The notes beneath the pieces were generated by a model, which saw only the letters and a program-made list of their open reading frames with translations, was not told the DNA's origin and searched no databases. Below, one piece after another: positions 6,065-45,817 of a stretch of 64,000 nucleotides of DNA. This DNA is from an uncultured Gammaproteobacteria bacterium (GTDB lineage Bacteria; Patescibacteriota; Microgenomatia; Daviesbacterales; UBA10151): assembly GCA_964500725.1 (NCBI GenBank), contig CAZCNP010000001.1:257520-321519 (forward strand). The letters run 5' to 3'. Numbering within the stretch: the first letter of the stretch is position 1; each line of letters opens with the position of its first letter. Made by a program: the position numbers and the translations under genes.

Positions 6065-6124
6065 GGTAGTTTCAGTTGATCCTGTAGTATAAATGAAGCC
6101 TTGGGAAAAATCAAATAGGGTGTG

Positions 6125-6778: not shown

Positions 6779-6852
6779 AAATGTGTTATATTTACTGCAT
6801 CACGATGAGAGGACTACCAAAGGGTTTTATCCCGCGGGAATGCCTCTCTTTT

Positions 6853-7341
6853 TTATCGCTTCACTTTATTTTTAAACAAATTTACAGAAACAATATAGTT
6901 GGCAAATCTCCTTAACAAGGACGAGTATTTGTCATTAGGAACAATAATTTTAGCAAGTTTGTCCTTTTTATCTAAATATTCAGCAAGACAGTAAAAATCG
7001 CCATCTCCTGAAATAATGATTGCTTTATCATAATGAGGAAACTCTATCATTGTGTGAAGTACTAATTCAGCATCAACATTACCTTTCGTATCACCAGAAC
7101 CCTTCTTTTTTCCCTCGACAGTAGGTTTAAAAATTATTTTGTAGCCTGCCTCTCTCAAAAACATATATAAAGATTCATTCTTGGAAATGTAACCAATAAA
7201 AAGGAACGCATGTTGAACTTTGTATTTAGCAGATAAGTATTTCCGAAATCTTGCAAAATCTAGAATCCAGCCGCTACTTCTAACTCCTAAGTTTAAATTC
7301 TGGCTGTCAATAAAAGCATAAACCTTTTCCTGTTTCTTCAT
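6853..7341 (-). CDS. NYN/LabA-like domain protein
   Basis: VYAFIDSQNL ... IISGDGDF is the LabA/NYN (DUF88) pattern. Confidence 0.65.
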   Translation of the reverse strand: MKKQEKVYAFIDSQNLNLGVRSSGWILDFARFRKYLSAKYKVQHAFLFIGYISKNESLYMFLREAGYKIIFKPTVEGKKKGSGDTKGNVDAELVLHTMIEFPHYDKAIIISGDGDFYCLAEYLDKKDKLAKIIVPNDKYSSLLRRFANYIVSVNLFKNKVKR

Positions 7342-7545
7342 ATAAACCTACTTTAAATCAAACGGGGAAATATTCAAGAGGGAAAATCACTTAGGCTCGC
7401 ACGAACCGTCCTTGTAAGACTTGGAGGGAGGAATCCTAAGAAGGCAGGCTATCAAATTTTTCTAACTCCTCTCGTTCACGTTCATTCATAGCAGGGATGA
7501 TACCATAAATAGGCAAATAGCTACACTTTTTGGCAGATCTAACAG

Positions 7546-9162: not shown

Positions 9163-9222
9163 GCTAGCATTATCCTTTGTAGCCTTTAAAAAAACAAGTC
9201 TTTTCTTAAATATGGTATAATT

Positions 9223-11226: not shown

Positions 11227-11267
11227 ATTAATTAACTCTCGGATAATTGTACGGGACTTGTCAAGTA

Positions 11268-11522
11268 TTAAAGACCGCTAAAATCTTCATCTAAAACTTG
11301 AGGGTTAATACTTTCTAGCTCCTTTTGCAAATCAGTAGAACTATCATACTGCACTTGCGCAGGAGGATTATATGATGAAGTTGAGGGAGTTGGAGTTACT
11401 TGATTTGCTTGATTTTGTTTAGAGGCTGGACTGGTAAGAGACGATACCTTTTGATTAAAAAGAAAGAAAATTATAACTACCCCTATTATCAATAAAACTA
11501 AAAATATTTTTTTACTGCTCAT
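11268..11522 (-). CDS. small membrane-anchored hypothetical protein
   Basis: N-terminal TM helix, low-complexity tail. Confidence 0.3.
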   Translation of the reverse strand: MSSKKIFLVLLIIGVVIIFFLFNQKVSSLTSPASKQNQANQVTPTPSTSSYNPPAQVQYDSSTDLQKELESINPQVLDEDFSGL

Positions 11523-11883
11523 TCAAAGCCTTTCCTACCTCTATCTTTGCTTTTAAAATTTTATTTTTTAACCCCAAAAAACTGCTTCTGAGCTGAGTTT
11601 TTGAAGAGTATTTTTGAGCTCTTTGGAAGGCTATAGCCTCAGCTGCTGAAGTAATCCAGTAATCAGCGCTTTCAATTTGGGTATCCACTCCTCCAAAAGC
11701 TACCCTGGTTTCTGTAATTCCTTTTCTTCTTCTTAACTCTTCCATAATTGCTGCCAGTTTTACCATATCTGCCTCAAACCTGCTGCAGACTTTTTGATTA
11801 ACCATATCCAAGGAAACACTAGCATAAGCAGTAATGGGTACAAATATTATCAGGAGCACAAAAAGTAGAACCAACTTCTTCAC
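11512..11883 (-). CDS. secreted hypothetical protein
   Basis: Signal-peptide-like N-terminus; 8-nt overlap with the downstream small ORF suggests coupling. Confidence 0.4.
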   Translation of the reverse strand: MKKLVLLFVLLIIFVPITAYASVSLDMVNQKVCSRFEADMVKLAAIMEELRRRKGITETRVAFGGVDTQIESADYWITSAAEAIAFQRAQKYSSKTQLRSSFLGLKNKILKAKIEVGKALNEQ

Positions 11884-11945
11884 TCTTCTAGCATAACATT
11901 TTAAATATATCTTCTACCACTGTTCTGATGAATGGTTAAATAAAG

Positions 11946-13169
11946 TTAGGGTTCGGTAACCTGTAACTCACAGGGCATTAAATCTATTGCCTGTTCCCAA
12001 CCGATGTTATTATCAGTACTCAAGATAGGAAAAAGTCTACTCACGGGTACAGCTCTTGGAAATTGAGCTAAAATATTCACTTCAGGAATTATTAACCTCT
12101 GCGCACTAAGAGCAATATTTCCTTCTTGAGATTCAGATACCTGGTAAACATATTCCCCATATCTATATACTTCACCAATCCGAATCTCATCAGTCTGAAA
12201 AACTTGTCTTGTTAAAATATTTTCTATACTAACCTCGAATTGATTTGGGTCTGATTGAGAAGGTTTATAGCTAATATCATAATAAGCAGCCTGTGATAAC
12301 TGATCATAATGGTCATCTAGGGTACCAGCAACTACCTGTTTTAATTGATCGATTACTAACATATCTTGTTGTTCGGGATTCATAGTAGGAAAGTAAGCAG
12401 GTAAATTCTTTGATGTTTCTAAATAAAGTTGCATTGCTAGTTGAGCCATATCCTCAGATGGAAGTTTTGGTCGTAAAGGCTCCAACTTATGAATAATTAG
12501 AAACATTAATGAGGTAGAAAGATCATTTTTAAAACCTTGAGGCCAAGCTTTCTGCTTTTCCTGAATTTCTTCGGTTAAGCTATTCACATAAGCAAGTAGC
12601 GACCAATCTTCTGGCATAAATAATGAACCCTTATGAGTTCCAAAAAGCTCTACCAGATCTTGCAAATTTTCCTCCAATGTACGTTGATCATGTAAATAAG
12701 ACCAACGTTCATCGTCAGCCATCGAGACTATATCTATACCTTGCTCTACGTCTTTATCCCCAGCTTTTCTTTCTATCTCAGCATGCAGCATAAAGGAGTT
12801 TATATCTCCCGGGTATCGATATTGAGCATGAAAGTGAATATCTCTTTCATCTGTTAGTTTATCCAGAACCAGGTTTATATAGCAAGCTTCTGGGGATAGT
12901 GCATCACGAGTATGAATTTCAACACTCCTATCGTCATTAAGTAAATAAAATACTTGATATTCATTTCCATCAGGTGAATCTTGAGTACGAATTTGGGTCC
13001 TCCTATAAGCAGATATTGGTGAGCTATCAGGTAAATGATTGGTGCGAACAAAGAGTTGGTATTTAGGATCTTTCTCCCAAGTTGTTTTAATACCATTTTC
13101 CGGATCTATTTTGCTAGCCAAAAATCGTTGGCGCCTTTTATCCCATCTTAATTCAGGTTCTATTTCCAT
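11946..13169 (-). CDS. hypothetical protein (407 aa), no recognisable domain
   Basis: Long ORF of coding-like composition; by eye somewhat higher GC than neighbours; sits beside a TA pair. Confidence 0.45.
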   Translation of the reverse strand: MEIEPELRWDKRRQRFLASKIDPENGIKTTWEKDPKYQLFVRTNHLPDSSPISAYRRTQIRTQDSPDGNEYQVFYLLNDDRSVEIHTRDALSPEACYINLVLDKLTDERDIHFHAQYRYPGDINSFMLHAEIERKAGDKDVEQGIDIVSMADDERWSYLHDQRTLEENLQDLVELFGTHKGSLFMPEDWSLLAYVNSLTEEIQEKQKAWPQGFKNDLSTSLMFLIIHKLEPLRPKLPSEDMAQLAMQLYLETSKNLPAYFPTMNPEQQDMLVIDQLKQVVAGTLDDHYDQLSQAAYYDISYKPSQSDPNQFEVSIENILTRQVFQTDEIRIGEVYRYGEYVYQVSESQEGNIALSAQRLIIPEVNILAQFPRAVPVSRLFPILSTDNNIGWEQAIDLMPCELQVTEP

Positions 13170-13301
13170 ATTATGGAGATTATACCAAGAAGAGGTCTTT
13201 ATTGCTAATTATAGGACTATAAATCTATCCTTTATTAGGAGGACAATCAAACTTCTATCCCAGCAGAAGATCGGTATTTGGTGCAAACGAAAGACCCTTG
13301 A

Positions 13302-13586
13302 TTAATATTTCCTGTATTTGTCATGTTTGCCAATATCAATTAATATGACTGCATTCTCCTCTTTCCAGATAAAAAATATTCTGTCAGACCTATTTAAACG
13401 AATTGTGTACTTACCTTTTGTATTTTTTAGCTTCTCTGTACGTAATCCTGGATGAGTGGGATTCGAGATGAATATAGTAACTGCTTTCCTATAATCTTCA
13501 AGGTGAATACGATTATTTTTAATATATTTTTTAAGCTCATTTAGAAAATGTTGTGTATATTCTAAGCTTATCTTAAGAGGAGACAT
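13302..13586 (-). CDS. type II toxin, RelE/ParE family
   Basis: GKYTIRLNRSDRIFFIWKEENAVILIDIGKHDKY is a RelE/ParE-fold C-terminus; 14-nt overlap with the upstream Phd/YefM-like gene. Confidence 0.7.
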   Translation of the reverse strand: MSPLKISLEYTQHFLNELKKYIKNNRIHLEDYRKAVTIFISNPTHPGLRTEKLKNTKGKYTIRLNRSDRIFFIWKEENAVILIDIGKHDKYRKY

Positions 13587-13842
13587 ACTTTTCTAGCTCT
13601 TGCAGATCTTCTTCTAACTCCTCAATTGTTTTAATTACCTTAGTCTTACCAGCTTTCGAATCTTTTAATGCTTGCTCTGCCAAAATATCTAGTTGTATTT
13701 TCTCCATTAAATCAAGTCCAATTATGGCACCAAGGGGTTTATTATTGGCCATCACCACAATAGGCTCTTTTGTTTTATTAGCTTTTTCTAAAACCTTTTT
13801 ATATTCTCTTTGGATTTGTCTTGCTGAAACAGTGTTAAACAT
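13573..13842 (-). CDS. type II antitoxin, Phd/YefM family
   Basis: NTVSARQIQREYKKVLEKA..EPIVVMANNKPLGAIIGLDLMEKI is a YefM/Phd pattern; precedes and overlaps the toxin. Confidence 0.7.
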   Translation of the reverse strand: MFNTVSARQIQREYKKVLEKANKTKEPIVVMANNKPLGAIIGLDLMEKIQLDILAEQALKDSKAGKTKVIKTIEELEEDLQELEKYVSS

Positions 13843-13898
13843 AATACTAATATTATACTTTTAATTAATATGTACGTCAAGATGACATACAATTATTT

Positions 13899-16433
13899 CT
13901 ATCCAGATAAAAGCTCAACCCCTGCTGTAAATGGTTGGCCCTTTATTAGTTGATTTTGCAGAATCAGCTTAGAAAGTTGGGCTTCTAAAGTATCTTGCAT
14001 CAGCCTTCTTAAAGGCCTGGCTCCCAAAACTGGATCAAAACCTCTCTTGGCAAATTCTGCAACTAAGCTAGGATCAAATGCTACCACATAGCCTTTTTCC
14101 TTCATTTGGGCTTGAAGTGAGGCAAGCTTTATTTGGACTATTTTTTGCAAATCCTCTGTTGATAATGGTTTAAAAAGCACTACTTTGTCAAACCTATTAA
14201 TAAGTTCCGGTCTATAAACTTTTAAAAGCTCCTCATTTACCTTTTGCTCTATAGCTTCCATACTTTGCCTAGTTTGCAAACCTTGAGCAATGGTTAAACT
14301 ACCAGCATTGGAGGTAGCAATAATAATAGTGTTGGTAAAGTCCACAGTTCTGCCTGCCCCATCAGTTAATCTTCCATCGTCTAATACTTGTAAAAATAGC
14401 GTCAAAATTTTCTCGTTGGCTTTTTCAAACTCATCCAAAAGCAGCAGCGCATAAGGTCTGCTTCTCACTGCCTCTGTTAAAAACCCTCCTTCTCCTGCAG
14501 CCCCAATCAATCTGCTGACTGATTCACTGTTTTGATATTCAGACATATCAAATCTAATATATGCTCCTGCCCCTTTGAAATACACCTCAGATAAAGTTTT
14601 CGCAAGTTCAGTTTTACCAACACCAGTAGGTCCTACAAATAAAAATGACCCGATTGGCCTGCCTTCCTCCCTTAAACCAGTTACCGAACGCCTTAAAGTA
14701 TCTGCCACAACTTTAACTGCCTGCTCCTGATCTATCAACCTTTGATGAATTTCATCTTCCAAATTTAATAATTTAGCCGTATCAACATTGCCTACATCCA
14801 CAATAGGCACTTTGACTCTTTGGGAAATTACTCTTTTTACCACATCTTTTGTCACCCATTTGTTGAGGGGTTGAGTTAAGCTTTCTTTAAAAACAGAAAT
14901 AGCACTATCCGGCAAAACACGGTCATGAATCAGCTTTTTAGAAAAAGTAACTGCTGTTTTCAAAGCAATAAAAGTAGTTTTTATTTTGCTTCTTCTTTCT
15001 GCCTCAATTGCACGGTATTCTAGTATAGCCAACGTATCTTTTTCCGTTGCAGAAGGCAGTTCAACTTTCCTGAAAAGCCTAGCAAAACTGCCATTTTTTT
15101 CTAAAACTTTGCTGTAACTTTCTGCCTCTGTTGTCCCAATAAATTGGAAAGTGTCTGATTCCAAATACGGCTGTATCATTGAATATAAATTAAAACTTTC
15201 GCCTACCTGACCCATACCGAGTTCATGAATTTCTTCGATAGCGATTATTGAGTTTTGGGCATAGCCTACCTCTTCAAAGATCGCTTTAACTTTTTCTGCC
15301 AGCTCACCTTGAGTTTTTACTCCTGATAATAACTTTGTTAAATCCAAAAGCACTATTCTCTTAGTAGCCAAAGCAGCAGGCGCATCTCCTGTGACAATTT
15401 GTTTTGCCAGAAAACGCAGAGTGGCTGTTTTTCCAGATCCTGGAGGCCCTACTAAAACCACATTTCTACCGCCTTCTTGTGAAAGAATGTTTACTAAGTC
15501 TTTTAAAACCCCGTCTTCACGGATTAAATCAGCAAACCCTTCGGTAGCTGCCTGCCTGGTTAAGTCTATGCTAACCAAATCTAAATTGGGAGTTGGTACT
15601 CCTAACCAACCTCTATTTGTACCTTTCAGATGATGAACAGTAAAATCATCATCCCAAATAAACACTCTTCTCCAGGTAGATCTTTTTTTCTCTAAATAGA
15701 GTAAAGCTTTTTCAAAATCTTCTAAAGTAAGTTCATATTTTAATAAGTAGGTATCAATATTAGGCATTTCTGACAAGGCTGCTACAAAAAAATGGGCAGC
15801 ATTTAAATATACGCTTCCACAGACTCTTCCTAACTCATATGCCTTCTTTGATACACTTTGCTCGCCGGTAATTTCAAATGCTGGAAGGAAAGATTGTTCA
15901 ATCTCTAAGTTAGCCAAGAGGTCTTTTACCTGATAAGTTTCCAGCAGCTTGTTAAACATTAAATCTTTTCTTTCAAGCAAGGAAGCTTTCCAAAAATCCT
16001 GATCTCTTTTACCAATCTGCCATAGTTTTTTATGAGGATTAACAAATATATTGATAAGAAAAAGACCCAAGCCAGACAAAAATATAGCAATACTAATAAG
16101 ATGAGGTGTATCAAAAATAGCAGCTGCAGGCAGGATCAACCAATAACCACCTATTAAAAATAAAATTACTGTTGCCGCAGCAAATGAAAATAACCCCATG
16201 ACAATTCTGACAAACCGGAAAAGAAAACTTAGTATTCTCCCTACTATTGTGCAGTCATGAAAAAGCGGCGTAAAAAGCAGTCTAAACATCAGCATCACAG
16301 CCAAATCTTCTTCCAAAAAAAGCATTAAATTCTTCCAAGTCCTTACAAAAAAGGCTACAGAATCTGGATACCAAAATTTAAATAAACTAATAGGTAAGGC
16401 TAAATATTTCATTTTCGTTAGAAAATAGTCCAC
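13899..16433 (-). CDS. Clp/Hsp100-type double-AAA+ ATPase with N-terminal multi-TM region
   Basis: Two P-loops (LVGPPGSGKT; FVGPTGVGKTELAK), and a sensor/arginine-finger region; first about 130 aa carry 3-4 hydrophobic helices in place of a ClpA/B N-domain. Confidence 0.75.
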   Translation of the reverse strand: MDYFLTKMKYLALPISLFKFWYPDSVAFFVRTWKNLMLFLEEDLAVMLMFRLLFTPLFHDCTIVGRILSFLFRFVRIVMGLFSFAAATVILFLIGGYWLILPAAAIFDTPHLISIAIFLSGLGLFLINIFVNPHKKLWQIGKRDQDFWKASLLERKDLMFNKLLETYQVKDLLANLEIEQSFLPAFEITGEQSVSKKAYELGRVCGSVYLNAAHFFVAALSEMPNIDTYLLKYELTLEDFEKALLYLEKKRSTWRRVFIWDDDFTVHHLKGTNRGWLGVPTPNLDLVSIDLTRQAATEGFADLIREDGVLKDLVNILSQEGGRNVVLVGPPGSGKTATLRFLAKQIVTGDAPAALATKRIVLLDLTKLLSGVKTQGELAEKVKAIFEEVGYAQNSIIAIEEIHELGMGQVGESFNLYSMIQPYLESDTFQFIGTTEAESYSKVLEKNGSFARLFRKVELPSATEKDTLAILEYRAIEAERRSKIKTTFIALKTAVTFSKKLIHDRVLPDSAISVFKESLTQPLNKWVTKDVVKRVISQRVKVPIVDVGNVDTAKLLNLEDEIHQRLIDQEQAVKVVADTLRRSVTGLREEGRPIGSFLFVGPTGVGKTELAKTLSEVYFKGAGAYIRFDMSEYQNSESVSRLIGAAGEGGFLTEAVRSRPYALLLLDEFEKANEKILTLFLQVLDDGRLTDGAGRTVDFTNTIIIATSNAGSLTIAQGLQTRQSMEAIEQKVNEELLKVYRPELINRFDKVVLFKPLSTEDLQKIVQIKLASLQAQMKEKGYVVAFDPSLVAEFAKRGFDPVLGARPLRRLMQDTLEAQLSKLILQNQLIKGQPFTAGVELLSG

Positions 16434-34967: not shown

Positions 34968-35541
34968 AATTGCACCCTCAAATGGTGCTATCTAAATATA
35001 TCATATTTTTCCCTTAAAATGTCATCCTGAGCAGAGGGCATTCGTTCCTCAATTACTAACGTAATTGTAAGAATTTAGCCTCAAGGGTCTTGACAAAAGG
35101 AGGCTTTTATGGTTAAGATAGAAATATCCTTTAAGACATTGTAGATGGCCTAAAGGACTTAGGCTCTGCCTAATCCCTACTTAGCACGTTTAAAGCCAAT
35201 ATATTTTTCTTCACTGATTTGTTACTTTACGGGAGTCTGGAGTGTGTTATAAAGCAACTGCCTAAACACCAGGACACCCACCTTAGGTTTTCCTGAGGAA
35301 AAACATTGGCTAAACGACTTTAAGTAGGGAGAAATTATTCTGTTTTTCAGTGTAATTTCTGGAAACCGCTTACCATTATGTGGCGGTTCTTCCAGTTATC
35401 CCAACCTTCTGTTTAATTCCCACTAATTTTGGTAAAATATACATTGTGCCGGTGTAGCATAAATGGATTATGCAGTGCTTTTGTAAAGCACAGACTATCG
35501 GATCATACCCGATCACCGGCTCATAATAATTTATATGCCTC

Positions 35542-35576: not shown

Positions 35577-36407
35577 ATGCGCCACTCATTCTACGATGAT
35601 CCTCTTTACAAGAAACAACAAGCTGAAATCACACGTAAATACTGGCAACTTGGTAAATTTGATTTCAAAAGAAAATCTGAAAATAGAATTTGTCAGAATC
35701 CGCAGTGCTCTCGCCCATTTACAACAAAACCACATGAGAAGAAAAAATATTGCAGTCATGCATGCGCTACTTCATTCAGTAATAAAGAAAGAACCACTTC
35801 GTTGTCTTCCGAGAAGCTAAGCAAATTATATGCTTCTGGCCAATCAATAACCGATATCGCTAAACATTTATGTATTTCCAGCAATAAAGTTGTTTACTGG
35901 ATGAATAAGTATAGAATACAAAGACGCTCTATCAGTGATGCTGTGTATTTGAAAAACCACCCAAACGGAGATCCTTTTTCGTTTAGAACTCCTTCTTCTC
36001 TAGCAGAGTCAATGCTGTTGGGATTAGGATTAGGTCTTTACTGGGGAGAAAGCAATAAGCTCAATAAAACATCAATAAGACTAGGCAACACCGATCCGGA
36101 TCTCATGAATTATTTCATCAAATTTATGATAGATATTTGCGGGGTTAAGAAGCAAGATTTAAAATTTGGTTTACAAATATTTACTGATATAGATACCCAA
36201 ACAGCAATGAATTACTGGATGGAAGAACTTGATATCAAAAAAGAGCAATTTTACAAACCTATTATCACAAAATCGAATTCTTTAGGTACCTATAGAAAAA
36301 AGAGTAAATATGGAGTTATAATGTTAAACTACCATAATAGAAAATTAAGAGATCTATTAGTAGGAATGCTGCCGACATGGCTCAGTGGTAGAGCACGTTC
36401 TTGGTAA
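35577..36407 (+). CDS. Zn-ribbon + HTH + LAGLIDADG-like homing-endonuclease-like protein; the 3' 37 nt overlap the tRNA-Thr 5' exon
   Basis: C..C..C..C N-terminus, HTH (SITDIAKHLCISSNKVVYW), and LLGLGLGLYWGE...(LAGLIDADG-like) domain. The frame runs through the tRNA 5' half and stops at TAA in the anticodon loop. Confidence 0.5.
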   Translation: MRHSFYDDPLYKKQQAEITRKYWQLGKFDFKRKSENRICQNPQCSRPFTTKPHEKKKYCSHACATSFSNKERTTSLSSEKLSKLYASGQSITDIAKHLCISSNKVVYWMNKYRIQRRSISDAVYLKNHPNGDPFSFRTPSSLAESMLLGLGLGLYWGESNKLNKTSIRLGNTDPDLMNYFIKFMIDICGVKKQDLKFGLQIFTDIDTQTAMNYWMEELDIKKEQFYKPIITKSNSLGTYRKKSKYGVIMLNYHNRKLRDLLVGMLPTWLSGRARSW

Positions 36408-36600
36408 TTGCTCAAATTGCCCACTTAAGGAGTAATCCTTAAGTGAATTCTGAATAACGGTTAAAGATCATCTTACAAGAGATTGAGACCGTGGCGTTAT
36501 ATACGCCCGAACGACTGACAAGGAGATCCCTTAGGGGATTAAGATACAGTCTAGCCAAAAGCGAAGAACGGGGTCGCGGGTTCAATTCCCGCTGTCGGCT
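36371..36600 (+). tRNA. tRNA-Thr (anticodon GGU) interrupted in the anticodon loop by a 158-nt insertion (approx. 36406..36563) that looks like a compact group I intron
   Basis: 5' half GCCGACA-TG-GCTC-AGTGGTAGA-GAGC-A-CGTTC-TTGGTAA; 3' half GAACG-GGGTC-GCGGG-TTCAATT-CCCGC-TGTCGGC-T. The 7-bp acceptor and 5-bp anticodon stems are complementary across the insertion. The insertion contains AATTGC (P-like) and GACTG/CAGTC (P7, R/S-like AAGATACAGTC) and ends in G after an exon U. Confidence 0.7.
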
Positions 36601-38122
36601 CCCAGCCCCGAGTTGTCGGGTCCGCCCATAGGGCGGACCATTGGTTTAGAGCTTTACAGTAAACTTTTTTGTCTTTTAGTGTGAGGTCCGAGCCGAAGAT
36701 TTTTAAAGCAAGTACCTTTTTTGCCTCCATGTTGTTCCCTCTTGCGATATTAGCAACGCTCGCAGCTTCCACTATCCAGTTTTTGAAAGGTCCGAGCCAA
36801 GCATTTTTACTTTGTTGAAAAGAAAAAATCTGTTCTTCTAATTTTTTCTTTAAAGCAAGCAATTGGGATTTTTTAAGCAGATAATCATTTCTCTCAATAT
36901 CTTGGTCAAGATAGGAATCTAATAAGCGTTGGAGTTTAGAGGAAATTAGTTTAATCTCTGCTTGCTTTTCCTCAACAAACGACTGACAGGATTGGGATAC
37001 ACTCTTTTCTTCTAAGGATAACTTATCAAGCATTTTAGCTGCCCAATTTGTCTTCAAAGAAACTGTGGCTATATTATCTGAAAGCTGTCTATCTAAATCC
37101 TCTTGTCGAATAAAGGGCTCGCTACATTTAACAGTTTTGGACTTTTTCGTACAACGATAGTAAATATATGTCACATCTCTGTTAGTTCCTTGGTAATGTT
37201 TAGTCTTTTGCTCAGCAGTAATCATAAAACCACACTGCCCACAGCGAAAAAGTCCTGTAAAAGGCTTTGTTGGCCTAATATCATGCCAAGATCTACTCTT
37301 TTTGCGCCAAACTTCATGAACTTGATCCCACAGTTTCTTTGTAATGATTGGCTCATGTTTGCCTTCGTGGATCTCTCCTAAATATCTAAAATGGCCATAG
37401 TAGAATGGGTTAGATAAAATTTGTTTACTTACTCTATCAATTTTCAAAACCTTGCCATTCCTACCTACTATGCCATTTTTAGCCAAAAAGTGACATATAT
37501 CTAAAATTCTAAACTTCCTTGTTGCAAACATCTCAAAAGCTCTAACAACAGAAGGAGCTTTTCGCCTGTCAACAATAATAGTTTTAGTTCTTGAATCATT
37601 TATGTACCCAATAGGTGCAAGCTGAGGACATTCACCACGTCTTACTTTTTGGCGTAATCCTCTTTTGGTGTTTTCTGACAGAGAGTCCACGAAGTATTTA
37701 CTTTGCCCAAAGGCGATGGTGAGCATAAATTTTCCTTGAGGAGTAGGATCAAACCAGAATTGAGGAAACTTTAAGGCTTTAATTTTCTCAGTGTCAACAA
37801 GATAGATAATTTTGCCACCATCTACACTATTGCGAGCAAGTCTGTCTGGATGCCAAGCCAAAATACCAGAGGCCTCATTTTTTTCAATTCGCTCAACCAT
37901 AGAATTGAAAATTGGCCTGCCAGGTATTTTGGCAGATTGTTTCTCGATAAGTTCTTCTACTATGTATAAATCCTCACGCTTGGCAAACTCACGTAGCTCG
38001 GTAAGTTGCGCTTCAATAGATAACACCTGTTTATCCTCTACATCTGTAGACTTGCGAGCATATAATATGAATTTTTGCAAAGTATTACTGGTAGTTTGTT
38101 CCATAAAAATACAAATAAACAA
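36551..38122 (-). CDS. large serine recombinase (phage-integrase-type LSR: resolvase catalytic domain + recombinase domain + Zn-ribbon + coiled-coil)
   Basis: N-terminal LYARKSTDVEDKQVLSIEAQ (catalytic Ser), recombinase-domain features, CGQCG...C..C zinc ribbon, coiled-coil C-terminus. The last about 50 codons read through the left inverted repeat and the tRNA 3' exon, so the true stop may be earlier. Confidence 0.8.
   Translation of the reverse strand: MFICIFMEQTTSNTLQKFILYARKSTDVEDKQVLSIEAQLTELREFAKREDLYIVEELIEKQSAKIPGRPIFNSMVERIEKNEASGILAWHPDRLARNSVDGGKIIYLVDTEKIKALKFPQFWFDPTPQGKFMLTIAFGQSKYFVDSLSENTKRGLRQKVRRGECPQLAPIGYINDSRTKTIIVDRRKAPSVVRAFEMFATRKFRILDICHFLAKNGIVGRNGKVLKIDRVSKQILSNPFYYGHFRYLGEIHEGKHEPIITKKLWDQVHEVWRKKSRSWHDIRPTKPFTGLFRCGQCGFMITAEQKTKHYQGTNRDVTYIYYRCTKKSKTVKCSEPFIRQEDLDRQLSDNIATVSLKTNWAAKMLDKLSLEEKSVSQSCQSFVEEKQAEIKLISSKLQRLLDSYLDQDIERNDYLLKKSQLLALKKKLEEQIFSFQQSKNAWLGPFKNWIVEAASVANIARGNNMEAKKVLALKIFGSDLTLKDKKVYCKALNQWSALWADPTTRGWEPTAGIEPATPFFAFG
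36601..36724. repeat. left inverted repeat flanking the serine recombinase gene (65-bp perfect core 36607..36671, imperfect extension to about 36724); contains palindrome GTCCGCCC-ATA-GGGCGGAC
   Basis: Exact reverse complement of 38474..38538; the extended arms also match (gagccgaagattttt... vs gagccgaaagattt...). Confidence 0.85.
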
Positions 38123-38423
38123 AACAATAAATCAAGAAACATTTAAGTGGGAAAAGATGTGAGAGTGTAATTTACTTACCTCTCACTATTTCCACTTAAA
38201 TGGCCGCTCCGGTGCACTCAATCCAAGTTGCCTCGAATTGTCCGAAACGGCCATTAAAAAAGACAACCTTTAAGGACTGAGTGCATTTTCAATATATCAA
38301 ACTGCCAGAAAAAGACAATATAGCAAAAATTCAAATTCTTTTATTTTGGGCAAAGTTTCCGAATTTAGTAGGATTTATTAATGTGATTACTAAGAATAAA
38401 ATATCGCAAGAGATTAAAAATTA

Positions 38424-38549
38424 AAAAAGGTACTGCGGTTAAATCTTTCGGCTCTGTTTTTCTCTTTGCTCTTCAAAAAAGTTTACTGTAAAGCTCTAAA
38501 CCAATGGTCCGCCCTATGGGCGGACCCGACAACTCGGGATTGGGAGCAG
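38424..38549. repeat. right inverted repeat flanking the serine recombinase gene (partner of 36601..36724)
   Basis: caaaaaagtttactgtaaagctctaaaccaatggtccgccctatgggcggacccgacaactcggg is the reverse complement of the left core. Confidence 0.85.
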
Positions 38550-38597
38550 ATATACGATATCGCTCGAACATATTTTATCAATAACTTTTAGGGAATG

Positions 38598-38843
38598 AAA
38601 GCTTGCAAGGAAAAGGGGTAAAGGGGAAAAGGAATTGCAAGCTTCCGCTGCAAAATACGTAACCTGACGCATTATTGGTCGGCTTCCAAGGCATATCCGC
38701 TTTCCACCTTGGTACTAATCCCTACCTTAAACTTAAATCCTTCAAGGCTTTAAATCTGATGCATGCATTTGCGGTTCGCTTCGCTCAGTCCCGCTTCGCG
38801 GGACTTCGCTAAACAAAAATATATTATTTGGGGGAAAATTTCG
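38598..38843. repeat. left long terminal inverted repeat (about 250 bp, imperfect) of a 13.6-kb segment
   Basis: Reverse complement of 51927..52179: an identical outer block (aaagcttgcaaggaaaaggggtaaaggggaaaaggaattgcaagcttccgct), a divergent middle, and an identical inner block of about 110 bp (…ctgatgcatgcatttgcggttcgcttcgctcagtcccgcttcgcgggacttcgctaaacaaaaatatattatttgggggaaaatttcg). Confidence 0.85.
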
Positions 38844-38955: not shown

Positions 38956-39729
38956 TTAGGGTTTGTAATTAGGGTAAAAATATTGCCATTCCATATTTTT
39001 GATACTTTGTTGAAAATCCTCAGGTATAGGTGCTTGTATAGTTCTCATATTTAATTTGATAGGATGTTGGAAAGTCAGTTCAAAAGCATGCAACATAGTT
39101 CTAGTAGCTCTAATAGCATCTCCACAATATAAGTAATCTCCCACAATAGGGTGTTTTAGATAGTCTGCTGAAACAACCCTAATTTGGTGGGTTCTACCAG
39201 TAACAATCTGCACCTCAGTTAAAGTTCTTATTCGTCCTTCGCCATCTTTTAAGCAAACAAGGGGTTTAAAAAAGGTGATTGAGTTTTTAGCTCCTGGAGG
39301 AATAAAACCTCTACCCGATTGTTCTGGTGTAACGATCTGCATTCTTTCAGTTTGAGTTGGAGCAATTGGTAATTCCGCTTTAAAAGGCTCTTTAAAATCC
39401 AATTCGCCTTCTAAAATCGCCAGATAGATCTTTCTCATGTTGGATCCTGCTTTGTTGGCAAATTGATCAAACAGCGAGATAAAAGCGGGACGAGTTTTGG
39501 AAAAAACCATTACACCTGTGGTATCTCTATCTAATCTGTTAGCTCGTTGCGTATTCCAACCTCTTAAGTGCTTTGCAATTTCTTCTATTCCAACTGGATT
39601 TACTTCTGAGTAATGAGAAGCAATGCCAGCGGGTTTGTTAATAATCAAAACATCCTGATCTTCATAGAGTACATGTTTATCAAAAGCATTAAGGAATTCC
39701 CAGGCTAATTGGTCTCTACCTGCAAGCAT
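38956..39729 (-). CDS. RluA-family pseudouridine synthase
   Basis: NRLDRDTTGVMVFSKT (catalytic Asp motif) and HQIRVVSADYLKHPIVGD. Confidence 0.8.
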   Translation of the reverse strand: MLAGRDQLAWEFLNAFDKHVLYEDQDVLIINKPAGIASHYSEVNPVGIEEIAKHLRGWNTQRANRLDRDTTGVMVFSKTRPAFISLFDQFANKAGSNMRKIYLAILEGELDFKEPFKAELPIAPTQTERMQIVTPEQSGRGFIPPGAKNSITFFKPLVCLKDGEGRIRTLTEVQIVTGRTHQIRVVSADYLKHPIVGDYLYCGDAIRATRTMLHAFELTFQHPIKLNMRTIQAPIPEDFQQSIKNMEWQYFYPNYKP

Positions 39730-39856: not shown

Positions 39857-41038
39857 TCAGCTGGATTTTTTTTCCCAACCTGCAGCTAACAATTCTTTAA
39901 CTTGCTTATTTGTTGCAAGAGGAGCTAGTACCCCAAAAACTACTAAAGCATCTTGGTCTTCAACATTAGCAACAAAGGTATTTTGTTTATCTTCTACAAA
40001 CCTAGTCAGTTTTGCTTGCAGAACTGCTTTACTGCGTTCATCTGAAGAACTTTCAACTTGATTGTTTAGGCTGTCTTGAATGCGTTGTAATTCTTCTTTG
40101 TCATCAGCTTTGATTGCAATTCCTAGTTTTTGTAAAATCTTTTGATCTACTTCCCCAAGCAGCCTACTTAAACGGTAAATTTCTGCTTTAGTTAATATTG
40201 GATCCACTTCCAAAACTTCTTGAGTAGGCGCTTCTTCTGGAGTTTGAGTTTGAATTTCAGAAGCATCAGGCTGTGCTATTTCATTAGGTGTGAATATAAT
40301 AGAACCTGAACTCTGAGCAGGTTCTGGTGATTTTGCTGGCAGAGTTACAATAGGTGTCTCAGCTGATTTTTTCGCTTTTGCTGGTCTTGGAGCTTGTTCC
40401 TTTGCTTTTGCGATTGGGATAGATGTGGCTGCTGCGGACTTGATGGACTCAACAGGCTTTGGTTCAAGGGTATAAGTAGCCTTTTCAGTCATATTGGAAG
40501 ACCTGATAGTAGCAATAGTATATCCTTGATCTACCAGTTTTGGTCTGATATTAGTTAAAAGAAGATTAGTATTGTTCTTAGAAATACCTAAGGCCTCAGC
40601 CAATTCAACATTAGTTGGTCTTTTAGTGGGGTTTGATAAAAACCAATCTACCATTTGTGTCTCTCTGGGACTTAAACCGGTGAAGATTGGTTTTACTACT
40701 GGCATTGATGTTTCAACAGGACTCTCTGGAACTGGTGCAGTACTAACAATTGGAGCGGTAGGATGTTCTTCTGGCTTGGTGACTTGGGGTATGGATCTTC
40801 CTAGGTAATCTTCAGCGGGTGGTTCTATACCCAGTCTTTTTCTGATTAAATTATTTATTTCTGGAACTATAACGTCTATTTGTCTAGCTGCTTTAATCTC
40901 TGAACGGACTTGAGTAGCCAGCGTTTCAGCTTCATCAATTCTTCCTTCTCTTAAAAGAACAGCACTTTGTTCAGATAACTGAGAGGCCCTGATCATTCTT
41001 TCTTGCTTAACAGTAAATAGAATTCTTTCAATAGCCAT
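39857..41038 (-). CDS. hypothetical protein with central Pro/Ala-rich linker and HTH-like segment
   Basis: MVDWFLSNPTKRPTNVELAEALGISKNNTNLLL looks like an HTH; low-complexity PA-rich middle; no catalytic motif recognised. Confidence 0.4.
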   Translation of the reverse strand: MAIERILFTVKQERMIRASQLSEQSAVLLREGRIDEAETLATQVRSEIKAARQIDVIVPEINNLIRKRLGIEPPAEDYLGRSIPQVTKPEEHPTAPIVSTAPVPESPVETSMPVVKPIFTGLSPRETQMVDWFLSNPTKRPTNVELAEALGISKNNTNLLLTNIRPKLVDQGYTIATIRSSNMTEKATYTLEPKPVESIKSAAATSIPIAKAKEQAPRPAKAKKSAETPIVTLPAKSPEPAQSSGSIIFTPNEIAQPDASEIQTQTPEEAPTQEVLEVDPILTKAEIYRLSRLLGEVDQKILQKLGIAIKADDKEELQRIQDSLNNQVESSSDERSKAVLQAKLTRFVEDKQNTFVANVEDQDALVVFGVLAPLATNKQVKELLAAGWEKKSS

Positions 41039-41101: not shown

Positions 41102-44100
41102 CTAAGAGATTCTACCTTGTTTGCGTAACTTAGCTGCAACAGAAACTATCCTTAAGAGTGGTACATCCAAAGCTTCAGCGATCTGAGGATAGGTTAGAGT
41201 TGGGTTTTGATTTACAAAACTTACCAGACTATTGGTAAGTTCTTCATTTTGTTCAACAGCAGATCTTCGCTGGGTTGTTCTACCATCTCTGACAGGCTGT
41301 ATCTCACCATCTTTAATTAACTTGGCTGCAGATGAGGTGATACTGCTATAAGACTTACCTGTTAAAACTATTATTTGAGCATTACTAAAGCCACAGTTTC
41401 TAAGATCTCTGACTAGATTACCCACGATCCGTTTTCTGCCTGGTTTTTCTTCTTCTTTGTCATCTGCTTTTTGGTTTATTATTATATTTTGGGCAAGTAG
41501 TAGAGCTGCTTTTTGAATTGCCTGATGTGCTCTGTCTTCTACCTCTTTAGCTGTTATACCAAAAATAAGGCCTAGGCGTAGCTGGGTGGTCTCTGAAGAA
41601 CCAATACTTCTCAAATACATAGATAATAAACTTTGTTGCTGAGGAGAGAGTTGTTGTTTTACTTCTGGTCTTTGTATAGCTTGTTTGTAAACCTGCTTAC
41701 ACCAATCAATATCCCTGAAATTGATTTCTAATTTACCAGCTAGTTGATCCGCAATTGTGGGTGAAGAAATTGATGGCGAAGGTTCATCAGGAAAGAGTCC
41801 CAATCTAAAAGCGACTCTTTCAGCACTGGCACCACCATATAATATACCAGGCTGATCTTTTTCCCACCAACGAGTTTGCCTTTCTAATCCTTCATCACCC
41901 CTTAGTTTACCAAGACCTGCACCCTCAAGTTGTCTTACTCGTTCTCTTGTGATGCCTAACTGTCTACCAACTTCCTCTAGTGTTCTTTTCTCTCCAGCAC
42001 CATCCAAATTAAATCTTAATGTTAGTACATCGCGTTCTTTTTCATTTAAATGTTGGGCAAATGCTCGCTCGATCTCTGTTCTAAGTGCGTTGTGTTCTGA
42101 TTCTCTTGTTACTATTTCCTCAATAGATTCACTGGGATCTGATATAAGATCCCCTACGGATTTGCTGTCTTGATCATCCTCATCAAATGTTTCGTCTAAA
42201 GAGGCAACGGTCAGTATCTGAGAATAATATATGCTTAAGGCATTATTAATTGTGCCCTTAGACAGCTTAGTTTTTTCTGCCAGTAGTTGCTCCAGCTCCT
42301 CAAGGTTGGGTTCGTGTCCTCGGGCAACTGTAAATTCCCTAGCTATTTTTCTAGTTTTGCTTAATCTATCTTCTGCATGAACAGGTAATCTGATTAACCG
42401 ACTTTTATCTTTAATAGCTCGATCTATAGATTGTCTGATCCAGTGAGTGACATAGGTAGAGAATTTCGTGCCTCGGGAAACGTCAAATTTATCAATCGCT
42501 CTTAATAAACCAAAGCTGCCTTCTTGAATCAAATCAATGAGTGGTAACCCCATATCTCGATGTTTGTTGGCAATTGATGCAACTAAAAGGTAATTACAAT
42601 TTGCTACTAGATGTTGTAAATTAGGACTCTGGGCAATTGCATTTCTCATTTTGTCCCGATCTTTCTCTGGTGTAACTTCCATAAAGGTTGGATCATTAAC
42701 CAAATCAGCAATTGCGGCCCCTCTATCAAGATACTCAAAAATCAATTTTTCTAGTTGGGCTGTCAATAATGGGAAATGACTGATTTGTCTAAAAAATGCT
42801 TCTTCAACTGAGTTTTCCCCGTTTGCTCCATCTACAGTTACAGATGGTGTCTTAAGATACTGGTCAAAAAGTCCATAATCTATCTGTTCGAAAAAGGCAA
42901 GAGCTTGTTTTTGTTGTTCGCTCAAGACTAGGGGTCCCTTTTTTCTCTCTTTCAATCTTGATGTTTTGGTTACAAAACCTGTACTAAAATCAACTTGTCC
43001 TAGAGCGACAGATTCAGCAGCTCGGGCCACTGATTGATAAATATCTTTTGATTCCACAAAAAACAATCCATCCACTACTGCCTCAAACATAGTAAGTTCT
43101 GACATTAAGTGTCCAATCACCCTTTGATCGTAAGTACCTTTTTCTCTACCTAGAATATCGCCAACCAGATAAGGGATATGAACAGTGACTTGTTCTCTTT
43201 GCCCTAGACGATGAATTCGGTCGATTGCCTGGATATAGCGGCTAATAGCATTAGGAGCGATAAAAAGTATTACCTCTGTAGCTCTATTTTTTGATGAATT
43301 TAATGTAATAGATTCTCCAGCTGTTTGATAATTTCCTACAACTACCCCTAACCCCCCTTCCCCTAAAAAATTATTCTGAATGGACAGTTTTTGTTCATCG
43401 TTTAAGGTACCATCTAAAACACCTACTGGTCTGACCCCCAGAGCCCGCAATCTCTCAGCTATAGCTTTCGTACTAATAGGAGAAGTAAATCTGTTTTCTC
43501 CTTCAACAAAAGGCGTGAAGATAACTACCTTTCGACCTTCAGCTAAAAGTTGTTTAACCTTATCTGCCAACCAAGGCATTTTGACTTGTCCTTCCAATGC
43601 CAGTAATGAATAAAATAAAGAGAAAGAATTGTCTGCATTTTTGATCGCCTGCTCTGCTGCTGACTTGAAACTTTGCTGATGCTCAGGAGACATCGATCCT
43701 AAATCTATCGGTATAAATTTAGTTTCTTTGGCTGGTAACTCAGAAATCTCATCCTTACGGCGTCTCATCATTACTTTCCTTAAAACTTTATATGTTTCAA
43801 CAGGATCGTATCTAATTTTTGCAATCAGCTCTGCTGGGATAAGTTTTGGATTGATCAAATGAGCTAAAATTAATGGTTCAATTAAATCTTTAACAAAAGG
43901 AGTACTAGTTGCAAAAGATACAGTCATCTCAGGGTGATCTTTAATAAACTGATATAAAACTGCAATTCTTTTGGCTATACTTACTCCACCTATTTCTTGT
44001 AAGGGCTTACTTAAGTTTATGGCCTCTATATTTCTAGATTTAATATTATGCGCCTCATCGATTAGAGAAGCAGCAAAAGGAAATTCATTCAACAATCTTC

Positions 44101-45817
44101 TAAAGTTAGGGTGGCGAAAAATATCATAGTTGACTAAAATAACTTGTTTATCCTTAGGGCATGCTTTCAATCGAGCCCTTAACACCTTTATTCGCTCATT
44201 TAAGGTTTTACCCTTAAGTTCTTCTTCAGCTACTGAATTAATATTAACCAAATCAAATCTGTCTGATTGTAAGTGTTTAGCTATTTCTTGTTCAACATTG
44301 GCAATAACTGTTTTACTACCAACTACTAAAACTCTACCTGGTTGTTCCTGTGAACACTCTTTTTTGTCCAGTAAATTTAGAGCTCCTAACATAAAAATAA
44401 GAGTTTTACCAGTTCCAGGTTCATCAGCTAAAATATGGCCACCATTTTCGACAAACTGTTTAATTGCTTCTACCTGATGCAGTAATAAATGTTTTTTATT
44501 ACCTTCTGGATCAAGCGTGGTAAAATAGGCTATCTGAGGAGCAAAATTGGCAATCTCCGCAAAATGTTGATAGATCTGAGGAAAAACTTTAGCATCGAAA
44601 AAATCAGTTAAATTTTTGTCTACATCCTCAGAAGGCATAATCTGTTGCTGGGTATAAATTTTCAAAAATTGGGTAAAAACAGTTGGAGGAATAGTTTTTG
44701 CTCCTGGGTTTTTATCCAAATACAGATTCCAAAACGAAGAAGCAGCTTTATAAAGTTCACTTTTAACAAGAGGTTGATAGTAACCTTCTACCAAAGAAAG
44801 AATGACCTTTTTAGAAGCAGCAGCCACGGCTTGATTATCGCTATCAGCCTGCTTAAAAAATACAACTAACGGATCCGATTGAGACAAAACTTCTTTAGCT
44901 CGATGGGATTTGGTTTGTTCTACAAATTTACTGGCTGTCTGTAAGAGTTTTTTCGCTTCCACCTGGGATAGAGCACCAAAACCACTATCTGGTAATTTTA
45001 CTGATAAATAATTGGTTAGAGCATCCAAAATTAGATCCTGGCTATCTGGTCTTAAAGCTTTAGAAGTTTCTACAACGAAAGTAGCTTCTTCAGTCAGGAA
45101 CCGGCCTACAACTTCCTCGGCATGATCCTCAAAATTTTCAGGGAACTTACCGCAAAGCTGTAATTGAACATTCTCCGGAGCTTTCTGAAAAAACATCTCG
45201 AATCTAGCTTTTCTTCTGGCTGCCGGACTACCAGCTTGAGTTTCATCAGCGTTTGTAACAACATACTGTAAATCCCAAAGGATAGATTCAACATGATGAT
45301 ACTTACCAGTAGCGAATCCTCTATATATAACAGTAGGATTCTCAGGGTCAAATGAGTCTAAAAATTGAGTAAAAGTAATATTCTCCTCAAGCAAACTTAA
45401 ATCATGACCAAAATCACTCCAAAATTTAGGAGTAAATACAAAATCGGCGGATTTGAGCTTAGTTGGAATCCATAATTTTTCAGCCATTAACTGTCTTGAT
45501 TCCGAAACTGTCTGTAGAAATTCTTCTTCCCCAAGAGGGGGTTGAAATTCGGATATTAGTGCTCTAGCTACCCTTTGATCATCTGGACGGCCTGATATAA
45601 AAGAATATCCAAGTCTGAGCATAGAGTACTTACCGCCTCTACCATTGAGAGCATTAGGATTTGCGTCAGGATCGAAAAAGTCAAAGAATTGACCAATATG
45701 CATTTTCCCCCCAACTTTTTCCAAATCTTGCTTTAATCCGCGCCAAAATTCAATTGTGCTAATCCCATCTAAATTTTCAGCGGTAAGAGGAGGTTCCTTT
45801 TCCCTAAGCATAGTCAT
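41102..45817 (-). CDS. 1571-aa fusion protein: unknown N-terminal domain + SNF2/RapA-type helicase ATPase + complete sigma-70 (regions 2, 3, 4) domain + C-terminal HTH-like domain
   Basis: SNF2 motifs I ILADEPGTGKT, II LIDEAHNIKS, V NYQTAGESITLNS, VI QAIDRIHRLGQ. Sigma-70 region 2 IDLIQEGSFGLLRAIDKFDVSRGTKFSTYVTHWIRQSI; region 4.2 RTLEEVGRQLGITRERVRQLEGAGLGKLR. Confidence 0.85.
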   Translation of the reverse strand: MTMLREKEPPLTAENLDGISTIEFWRGLKQDLEKVGGKMHIGQFFDFFDPDANPNALNGRGGKYSMLRLGYSFISGRPDDQRVARALISEFQPPLGEEEFLQTVSESRQLMAEKLWIPTKLKSADFVFTPKFWSDFGHDLSLLEENITFTQFLDSFDPENPTVIYRGFATGKYHHVESILWDLQYVVTNADETQAGSPAARRKARFEMFFQKAPENVQLQLCGKFPENFEDHAEEVVGRFLTEEATFVVETSKALRPDSQDLILDALTNYLSVKLPDSGFGALSQVEAKKLLQTASKFVEQTKSHRAKEVLSQSDPLVVFFKQADSDNQAVAAASKKVILSLVEGYYQPLVKSELYKAASSFWNLYLDKNPGAKTIPPTVFTQFLKIYTQQQIMPSEDVDKNLTDFFDAKVFPQIYQHFAEIANFAPQIAYFTTLDPEGNKKHLLLHQVEAIKQFVENGGHILADEPGTGKTLIFMLGALNLLDKKECSQEQPGRVLVVGSKTVIANVEQEIAKHLQSDRFDLVNINSVAEEELKGKTLNERIKVLRARLKACPKDKQVILVNYDIFRHPNFRRLLNEFPFAASLIDEAHNIKSRNIEAINLSKPLQEIGGVSIAKRIAVLYQFIKDHPEMTVSFATSTPFVKDLIEPLILAHLINPKLIPAELIAKIRYDPVETYKVLRKVMMRRRKDEISELPAKETKFIPIDLGSMSPEHQQSFKSAAEQAIKNADNSFSLFYSLLALEGQVKMPWLADKVKQLLAEGRKVVIFTPFVEGENRFTSPISTKAIAERLRALGVRPVGVLDGTLNDEQKLSIQNNFLGEGGLGVVVGNYQTAGESITLNSSKNRATEVILFIAPNAISRYIQAIDRIHRLGQREQVTVHIPYLVGDILGREKGTYDQRVIGHLMSELTMFEAVVDGLFFVESKDIYQSVARAAESVALGQVDFSTGFVTKTSRLKERKKGPLVLSEQQKQALAFFEQIDYGLFDQYLKTPSVTVDGANGENSVEEAFFRQISHFPLLTAQLEKLIFEYLDRGAAIADLVNDPTFMEVTPEKDRDKMRNAIAQSPNLQHLVANCNYLLVASIANKHRDMGLPLIDLIQEGSFGLLRAIDKFDVSRGTKFSTYVTHWIRQSIDRAIKDKSRLIRLPVHAEDRLSKTRKIAREFTVARGHEPNLEELEQLLAEKTKLSKGTINNALSIYYSQILTVASLDETFDEDDQDSKSVGDLISDPSESIEEIVTRESEHNALRTEIERAFAQHLNEKERDVLTLRFNLDGAGEKRTLEEVGRQLGITRERVRQLEGAGLGKLRGDEGLERQTRWWEKDQPGILYGGASAERVAFRLGLFPDEPSPSISSPTIADQLAGKLEINFRDIDWCKQVYKQAIQRPEVKQQLSPQQQSLLSMYLRSIGSSETTQLRLGLIFGITAKEVEDRAHQAIQKAALLLAQNIIINQKADDKEEEKPGRKRIVGNLVRDLRNCGFSNAQIIVLTGKSYSSITSSAAKLIKDGEIQPVRDGRTTQRRSAVEQNEELTNSLVSFVNQNPTLTYPQIAEALDVPLLRIVSVAAKLRKQGRIS

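Follow-up and report, generated by a model that had tools for sequence, protein, structure and literature searches.

Transcription initiation with bacterial sigma-70 is, in the textbook description, a process in which the promoter is opened independently of ATP; in eukaryotes, XPB/Ssl2 of TFIIH, a double-stranded DNA (dsDNA) translocase of superfamily 2 (SF2), is held on the initiation machinery beside the promoter DNA. Sigma factors are also encoded by phages and other mobile elements, for instance gp28 of SPO1 and SigN of the Bacillus subtilis plasmid pBS32, and we know of no mobile-element or phage sigma factor that carries an ATPase. RapA is a separate protein with beta-rich (Tudor-like) N-terminal domains that binds the core RNA polymerase (RNAP) non-covalently and competes with sigma-70, and it is, to our knowledge, the only Snf2 ATPase that works on the bacterial enzyme. 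The abstracts of two reports present RapA as a Snf2 ATPase able to act on bacterial RNAP (PMC8501970; bioRxiv 10.1101/2024.09.28.614012). Here we describe a gene in which a Snf2-type ATPase and a sigma-70-family factor are joined in a single polypeptide, located in a stretch of 64,000 nucleotides (the window) of contig CAZCNP010000001.1 (assembly GCA_964500725.1, positions 257,520 to 321,519). The passages returned by full-text literature searches, among them comparative-genomics papers that name both sigma factors and Snf2 ATPases, held no description of a Snf2-sigma fusion, in agreement with the first-pass annotation of this DNA, which knew of none. Both domains are well known; their covalent pairing, the cassette in which the gene resides and a clade of sigma factors linked to mobile elements appear to be new.

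The gene and the parts of its product, with their window coordinates, are the following; ORF stands for open reading frame and wHTH for winged helix-turn-helix (HTH).

41102..45817, minus strand: fusion gene, 1,571 aa, with an N-terminal domain, a Snf2 ATPase, a linker, sigma-70 regions 1.2 to 4 and a wHTH tail
44528..45817, minus strand: all-alpha N-terminal domain, residues 1-430, family-specific
43043..44500, minus strand: Snf2-family ATPase core with two RecA-like lobes, residues 440-925 (Pfam, invariant motifs and Foldseek)
42701..43042, minus strand: poorly conserved linker, residues 926-1039 (column conservation and pLDDT)
41888..42700, minus strand: sigma-70-family module with regions 1.2, 2.1-2.4 and 4 and an apparent region 3, residues 1040-1310 (Pfam, NCBIfam and phmmer)
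41105..41887, minus strand: C-terminal extension with a motif and winged-helix/HTH repeats, residues 1311-1571

According to the ORF listing, 41102-45817 is a single, uninterrupted frame with 0 internal stops, as expected from the earlier claim of one giant SNF2 and sigma-70 polypeptide. The version deposited at NCBI starts at M3, has 1,569 aa and is named only "sigma-70 family RNA polymerase sigma factor". An identical protein is encoded by JACQIW010000013.1 of GCA_016198315.1, a 336-kb contig of a metagenome-assembled genome (MAG) named "Candidatus Daviesbacteria bacterium" (Patescibacteria group, Microgenomates group), and by Logan contigs assembled separately from three sequencing runs; the intact ORF is thus the same in five contigs from four data sets. 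In addition, about 20 further proteins with 33-46% identity carry the Snf2 and sigma-70 modules in one chain, and a word-indexed search returned eight homologues (35-41% identity), all eight with Snf2, Helicase_C and Sigma70 r2 and r4 domains. The trivial explanation would be an assembly error or a frameshift that joins two separate genes; given the identical ORF in separate assemblies and the same continuous architecture in some 20 diverged homologues, such a frameshift or chimera is excluded for every practical purpose. The covalent Snf2-sigma-70 fusion is real and conserved, and both modules are under selection. The interpretation that we favour, to which we assign a probability of roughly one half, is that the protein is an accessory sigma-70-family factor with its own Snf2-type dsDNA translocase, placed at the centre of a three-gene cassette that is confined to a few Microgenomates-group bacteria of the candidate phyla radiation (CPR) and spreads, at least in part, by means of integrative elements that have large serine recombinases and in some cases a TraG-like ATPase.

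The anatomy of the protein was derived from family alignments (of 9 and later of 30 members, with residue conservation counted over the 22 sigma-bearing ones) and from two AlphaFold models. Comparison of the modeled N-terminal domain with solved folds gave no match; this domain contains an internal duplication of the motif FW..DL...F..F.P....GKY (around residues 24-62 and 131-173). The motor is recognized by Pfam above the gathering scores, with SNF2-rel_dom at residues 457-601 (57.6 bits, cut-off 24.9) and Helicase_C at residues 752-872 (31.2 bits, cut-off 23.5). Motifs I (GTGKT), II (DEAH) and VI (QAIDRIHRxGQ) are intact, and the Walker A lysine K471, D587 and E588 of the DExH motif, and R867, R870 and Q873 of motif VI are invariant in 22 of the 22 sigma-bearing members. 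Its neighbours in Foldseek are BRG1, ISWI/SNF2h, Ino80, CSB, ZorD and the Sulfolobus Rad54-like core SsoRad54, with E values from 1e-13 to 1e-15 and TM scores (target) of 0.5-0.69 for ISWI, SNF2h, Ino80, BRG1 and ZorD; the remodellers ISWI, BRG1, Ino80 and CSB, as well as ZorD and DrmD, share the same two-lobe fold of the Snf2 dsDNA translocases. From its motifs, the ATPase is apparently active.

The first-pass annotation had called this part SNF2/RapA-type, and the motifs, the Pfam matches and the fold confirm the first half of that name. Fusion and RapA (HepA) are alike in being Snf2-family ATPases, and bacterial RNAP is the business of RapA; nonetheless, the RapA model NF003426 reaches only 20.5 bits (cut-off 576) over a match of 41 residues, and RapA is absent both from the matches among the Protein Data Bank (PDB) sequences and from the 50 best structural neighbours of the motor. 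Unlike RapA, the fusion has an all-alpha N-terminal domain, and its attachment to RNAP would go through the built-in sigma factor.

Between the motor and the sigma module, column conservation falls to 0.34 (0.63 in the Snf2 core and 0.50 in the sigma module). Disorder is predicted for residues 910-1002 (residues 481-573 of the model, pLDDT <50), a segment that begins inside what is listed above as the Snf2 core, and the model that spans the linker has a whole-model pTM of 0.43. These two values point to motor and sigma as beads on a string, with no fixed arrangement predicted, and the two modules are predicted to be joined by a disordered tether of about 90 residues.

Pfam detects Sigma70_r2 at residues 1074-1140 (53.9 bits, cut-off 24) and Sigma70_r4 at residues 1255-1306 (71.6 bits, cut-off 24.1), again above the gathering scores; Sigma70_r3 is missed in this protein and detected in the homologues P0008 and P0009. 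Residues 1071-1308 cover positions 5-227 of the 238 of the RpoD C-terminal model of NCBIfam (E 5e-57) and align with solved SigA, RpoD and RpoS chains (phmmer, E 3e-42). Since both alignments, to the RpoD C-terminal model and to solved SigA, run continuously through region 3, this region appears to be present; it carries an insertion of about 16 residues, has diverged, and is predicted by AlphaFold to contain helices. As in the group 1 and group 2 sigma-70 factors (RpoD/SigA, RpoS and the cyanobacterial SigA-type proteins), regions 1.2, 2, apparently 3, and 4 follow each other in order, and the core-binding helix and the −35/−10 contact residues are kept. In contrast to these factors, the fusion has no region 1.1 (no match to Sigma70_r1_1 in Pfam); some 1,040 residues lie ahead of region 1.2 and some 260 behind region 4, inserts are found between regions 1.2 and 2.1 and in region 3, and the equivalents of W433 and T440 are substituted.

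We applied to the family alignment the residue numbering and the roles in core, −10 and −35 contacts that we take to be those of Escherichia coli sigma-70. The equivalents of D403, Q406 and G408, which with E407 correspond to the residues that contact the beta-prime coiled-coil, are conserved in 22/22 members, and that of E407 in 19/22. In the −10 region, Y430 is kept in 21 of the 22, W434 and Q437 in 20, and R441 in 19; in the −35 helix (TRERxRQ), R584, E585, R586 and R588 are kept in 21 and Q589 in all 22. This pattern suggests selection for core binding and promoter reading, of which it is evidence and not proof, and on these grounds the sigma factor is apparently complete and functional.

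The C-terminal extension opens with the motif WWE..P..Y..SAE..LGL, which is specific for the subfamily and also occurs in a stand-alone sigma factor described below (P0152). It continues with winged-helix/HTH repeats that vary in number among homologues, as does the length of the tail; the matches are weak (HTH_24, MarR-like, Ren-like) and the modeled helical bundles have pLDDT values of 80-90. About 260 residues follow region 4, and not the approximately 170 unassigned residues counted in the first-pass annotation.

The fusion gene lies between two genes that recur with it, and the following features describe this part of the window.

45824..47515, minus strand: upstream partner gene, 563 aa, 6 nt from the start of the fusion
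39857..41038, minus strand: downstream cassette gene, 393 aa, with conserved N- and C-termini and an acidic, variable middle
38956..39729, minus strand: RluA-type pseudouridine synthase (Pfam PseudoU_synth_2)

Homologues of the partner, with 23-37% identity, are found directly upstream of the fusion in seven other loci (L001, L002, L008, L011, L012, L066 and L067); they were taken from the loci because the word-indexed search with the partner returned only a fragment of the partner itself. Its middle domain gives sub-threshold, consistent matches to class-I methyltransferase families (Methyltransf_11, 12, 25, 29 and 31), with a SAM-binding motif I that is not canonical, and its C-terminus gives sub-threshold matches to HTH families. 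These sub-threshold profile matches suggest a degenerate methyltransferase-like middle followed by a C-terminal HTH. A motif of about 35 residues, LSxxWFRxxGLL......F.GDI..A..FA.PE, is present twice in the partner (residues 38-70 and 440-470) and opens most of the fusion homologues (P0002, P0003, P0005, P0006, P0008, P0009 and P0139); it is absent from the fusion of the window. The shared motif may be an interaction module. The possibility that the long N-terminus of P0139 is a fused partner was rejected, given that only this short WF..GLL motif matches.

Homologues of the 393-aa gene are located directly downstream of the fusion in L001, L002, L008, L009, L011, L066 and L067, that is, in all the cassettes with sufficient flank. 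The library scans gave no family match for its product, and profile searches of both the partner and the downstream protein against the PDB sequences gave chance-level matches only. The pseudouridine synthase, for which a 55%-identical gene is found at the same position in L002/L003, may be a fourth cassette gene or a mere neighbour. The synteny of this gene and of a major facilitator superfamily (MFS) transporter gene had suggested a conserved housekeeping locus; this idea was weakened by the presence of the cassette at unrelated sites (L001, L008 and L012) and near mobile-element genes (L067). In L008 the cassette (3358-15536) separates ftsA from ftsZ within the division gene cluster, in L001 it lies among uvrB, lexA and the enolase gene, in L009 between the genes of G6PD and an MFS transporter, and in L012 it adjoins hsdR, which encodes the R subunit of a type I restriction enzyme. 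Just upstream of the partner, at 47579-47815, there is a 78-aa ORF that resembles a fragment of staphylococcal nuclease (SNase) and that was not found in the other cassettes.

When residues 215-1315 were compared exhaustively by phmmer with 1.84 billion cluster representatives and the family was delimited at >350 bits, about 27 family clusters were detected, and the next matches were ordinary sigma factors at <=225 bits; around 20 of the 27 members span both the Snf2 and the sigma modules. A second search, by means of two patterns that are invariant in the 9 aligned family members, was run on 185,579 species, each represented by one genome, and found the family in 7 contigs that represent 6 distinct species genomes; the named carriers are Woesebacteria (two) and Gottesmanbacteria (one), and all the reliably named members of the family belong to Microgenomates-group CPR. 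Regarding the names, contig L013 (DUGB01000140.1, "Candidatus Woesearchaeota archaeon UBA10204") is mis-binned, as it is 99.9% identical to the Gottesmanbacteria contig L011, and the MAGs that carry L008, L009 and L014 (38-42% GC) are titled "uncultured Gammaproteobacteria" and are probably mislabelled.

This distribution bears on the idea that the fusion is the primary sigma factor of the organism, that is, an oddity of CPR transcription. Such a housekeeping role has in its favour that the sigma part is closest to group 1 and group 2 factors, that no other sigma gene is present in the 64-kb window, and that the cassettes of L001 and L008 reside among core genes. However, even within Microgenomates the family is rare, which argues against a housekeeping function: with 6 carriers in 185,579 species genomes, despite search patterns that are invariant, most Microgenomates must use another sigma factor. 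The sigma part shares no more than about 35-46% identity with any stand-alone or primary sigma and lacks region 1.1, the sigma module has been lost or has decayed in some members, and none of the RpoD, RpoS and SigA equivalog cut-offs of NCBIfam is reached (193 bits against 354 for RpoD_Cterm and against 555 for PRK05658, in a range of RpoD cut-offs from 354 to 572). We consider this explanation very unlikely; if the fusion were the only sigma factor of the genome, the finding would be more important still.

The accessory character that we favour is supported by this rarity together with the differing insertion sites (L001, L008 and L012). The closest stand-alone sigma, P0152 (562 aa; L063/L064/L065), is 39% identical over 364 residues and has both the insert of the subfamily between regions 1.2 and 2.1 and the SAE..LGL extension after region 4. 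Its gene is part of a module with the order serine recombinase, a 70-aa protein, Xre, sigma and a TraG-like ATPase, the last being 49% identical to the corresponding ATPase of L067. Part of the C-terminal region of P0152 resembles the downstream protein of the cassette (25% identity). In a third form, P0266 (L061, 6001-9264), a sigma factor of the same clade (35% identity) is fused to a compact SF2 helicase (ResIII/PF18766 and Helicase_C), and the gene adjoins those of a TraG/DUF87-like ATPase and of a homologue of a 253-aa protein of L067; the contig, of 1.14 Mb, has FtsK, Mrr and ImuB-like genes nearby. The sigma subfamily therefore comes in three forms, as a protein of its own, joined to Snf2 or joined to a second type of helicase, and recurs on integrative or conjugative-type elements. 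The second, independent fusion argues that the pairing of helicase and sigma is functionally favoured and not accidental. With gp28 of SPO1 and SigN the fusion would share the property of an accessory sigma on a mobile element that redirects the host core polymerase, for which the P0152 module offers a comparison; it differs from them in its covalent translocase, and P0266 differs in carrying another type of helicase.

The first-pass annotation had placed the fusion in an element bounded by terminal inverted repeats (TIR) and next to a serine recombinase, and the repeats and the recombinase were both confirmed.

36551..38122, minus strand: large serine recombinase of the integrase type, 523 aa (Resolvase, Recombinase and Zn_ribbon_recom domains)
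38536..38843, no strand: left arm of a 305-nt inverted repeat, abutting the recombinase unit
51927..52232, no strand: right arm of the 305-nt inverted repeat, 57 nt upstream of rpmG (52289-52456) and next to tRNA-Trp

The recombinase (PHROG integrase, E 3e-72) is encoded 3 kb downstream of the fusion on the same strand, and its gene alone is enclosed by 77-nt inverted repeats (36595-36671 and 38474-38550, 96%). The resulting insertion sequence (IS)-like unit, 36551-38550, is 72-74% identical at the DNA level to positions 8959-10838 of L011 (Gottesmanbacteria), with matching terminal repeats. The unit of L011 is also about 3 kb downstream of the fusion gene, yet identity between the two fusion proteins is only about 37%. 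The window, L011 and L067 all have a large serine recombinase on the same strand as the fusion, 3-7 kb downstream of it. Behind the cassette of L067 come the genes of a Crp-like regulator, the 253-aa protein, a 913-aa DUF8128/DUF87/TraG-like ATPase, an HTH_17 protein and the serine recombinase. The arms of the longer repeat are 87% identical over 309 nt (38536-38843 against 52232-51927), with cores of 93-100%, and enclose 13.1 kb that include the cassette. The two ends of the Logan contig L005 (13,143 nt) coincide with the two arms, which shows only that assemblers break at them. The 13.1-kb block, in which no phage, conjugation or transfer genes were found, could represent a segment that inverts, the remnant of an element or a duplication that arose by chance.

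Several observations weigh against an accessory, mobile-element-borne sigma factor with a motor. On the side of the sigma module, the equivalent of W433 is kept in only 10/22 members (H in the protein of the window) and that of T440 in only 7/22 (D in the protein of the window), so that the near-RpoD-level identity claimed earlier for both recognition segments holds for the contact residues of the −35 helix and is broken at these two positions of the −10 segment; region 3 has also diverged. On the side of the family, six members (P0145-P0150) consist of the N-terminal domain and the Snf2 core with only a short tail and no sigma, and in two others (P0137 and P0151) the sigma motifs have decayed, from which it follows that the N-terminal domain and the motor can work without a sigma factor. 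Two of the 6 species genomes carry such sigma-less versions (L010, 7245-10319; L014, 7161-9761), and their 8-kb flanks contain no sigma gene. A search of 2.9 million viral contigs gave no family member, and returned only generic phage Snf2 helicases with 21-27% identity. On the side of the element, the 305-nt repeats are far longer than the attachment (att) sites of serine recombinases, the 13.1-kb block shows no shift in composition within the window, no TraG-like ATPase is encoded in the window, and in five related loci no recombinase or mobility gene is present within 8-10 kb of the cassette. A discrete TIR-bounded element is consequently not supported; the broader link to mobile elements, weakened by those five loci, keeps circumstantial support from the window, L011, L067 and the P0152 module. 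Finally, a promoter and terminator scan of 38.5-48.3 kb gave counts not above those of shuffled sequences; a special promoter therefore lacks evidence.

The sigma-less members are relevant for a different proposal, in which the protein is a recycling motor anchored to RNAP: the sigma module would be mainly a high-affinity handle on the core polymerase, the Snf2 motor would dislodge stalled or post-termination polymerase, a RapA-like task in the hands of another protein, and promoter recognition would be secondary or absent. These members show that the motor has a function of its own, the motor and the core-binding residues of sigma are both conserved, and RapA provides a precedent for a Snf2 ATPase that acts on bacterial RNAP. 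Nonetheless, conservation of the −35 helix in 21-22 and of the −10 contacts in 19-21 of the 22 members is hard to explain if the reading of DNA were dispensable, no sequence or domain relationship to RapA exists, and the extreme rarity and variable location fit poorly with housekeeping recycling. We regard this proposal as unlikely.

The composition of the cassette and its surroundings suggest yet another explanation, a conflict system in which the motor and the methyltransferase-like partner act on foreign DNA, as a parallel to BREX, DISARM and Zorya, and the sigma module senses, sequesters or redirects RNAP during infection, be it for defence or for anti-defence and takeover by a mobile element. 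Such a system would be in line with the patchy distribution, the fast divergence, the variable sites (one of them beside the type I restriction-modification gene hsdR), the mobile-element neighbourhoods and the methyltransferase-like fold signature of the partner. The top PADLOC matches also belong to defence systems, with MzaA for the sigma part and ZorD, DrmD and PbeA for the Snf2 part. MzaA, of the anti-phage system MZA, is the best match in both NCBIfam and PADLOC and resembles the fusion in being a larger accessory protein with a sigma-70-like module in its C-terminal part; a mechanism for it was not found in a full-text literature search. The defence-model matches, however, are all partial and generic. 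The fusion is not MzaA, for which it scores 213.6 bits against 800 over the sigma region only (model positions 459-703 of 726; 436-656 of 683 in PADLOC), and it is neither ZorD (27 bits against 1,500) nor DrmD (22.5 against 950), from which it differs in having no Mrr or PLD nuclease. Among the eight neighbouring proteins, PADLOC found no MzaB-E, no Zorya or DISARM partners and no member of any other family, with the exception of the weak 78-aa SNase fragment. The cassette contains no conserved nuclease or effector, and the partner lacks a canonical SAM-binding motif. On balance, a conflict system seems to us a doubtful explanation.

If the protein is, as we favour, an accessory sigma factor with a translocase, its sigma module would dock on the host core RNAP and read near-consensus −35/−10 promoters. 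The N-terminal segment of about 1,000 residues would replace region 1.1, and this would hold the motor near the DNA channel on a flexible leash, a placement taken from general knowledge of holoenzyme structures. Translocation driven by ATP could then clear DNA-bound proteins or stalled polymerase from the DNA; alternatively, the motor could pump DNA and assist opening or escape. Transcription would thereby be biased to the targets of the cassette or of the element, and a further layer of DNA targeting or regulation probably comes from the partner and the wHTH tail. The capture or redirection of the host RNAP that the first-pass annotation proposed is likewise an inference.

A bolder version of this mechanism, which we judge improbable at present, would be that the tethered Snf2 translocase makes transcription of the sigma-70 type ATP-coupled, either by promoter-proximal pumping and clearing, or by stripping core polymerase off the host DNA and handing it in cis to its own sigma. 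The comparison with XPB/Ssl2 is an analogy and does not imply homology, and any role of the motor in DNA opening is conjectural. If the pumping version were true, the fusion would be the equivalent in bacteria of TFIIH/XPB or of initiation assisted by a remodeller; if the stripping version were true, a mobile element would hijack RNAP with a motor. In either case, P0266 would turn the coupling of helicase and sigma into a general and previously unseen strategy of CPR mobile elements. A natural and conserved motor-sigma polypeptide is a ready-made experiment on ATP and initiation or on polymerase displacement, and the sigma subfamily is linked to integrative or conjugative-type elements of candidate-phyla bacteria, in which both mobile elements and transcription have hardly been explored.

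Other features of the region around the repeats were also recorded. A structured RNA in the 305-nt repeat was considered and dropped, as the fold z-score was only −1.46; Rfam gave no match in the repeat, and the only RNA found was tRNA. Inside the right arm, at 51150-51927, approximately 780 nt without an ORF of at least 100 aa contain several GC-rich runs that resemble hairpins; the genome has about 37% GC. At 35577-36407, between tRNA-Thr (35448-35522) and the recombinase unit, a 276-aa protein is encoded that has an IS1/Cbp1-like HTH and a weak similarity to phage HNH endonucleases.

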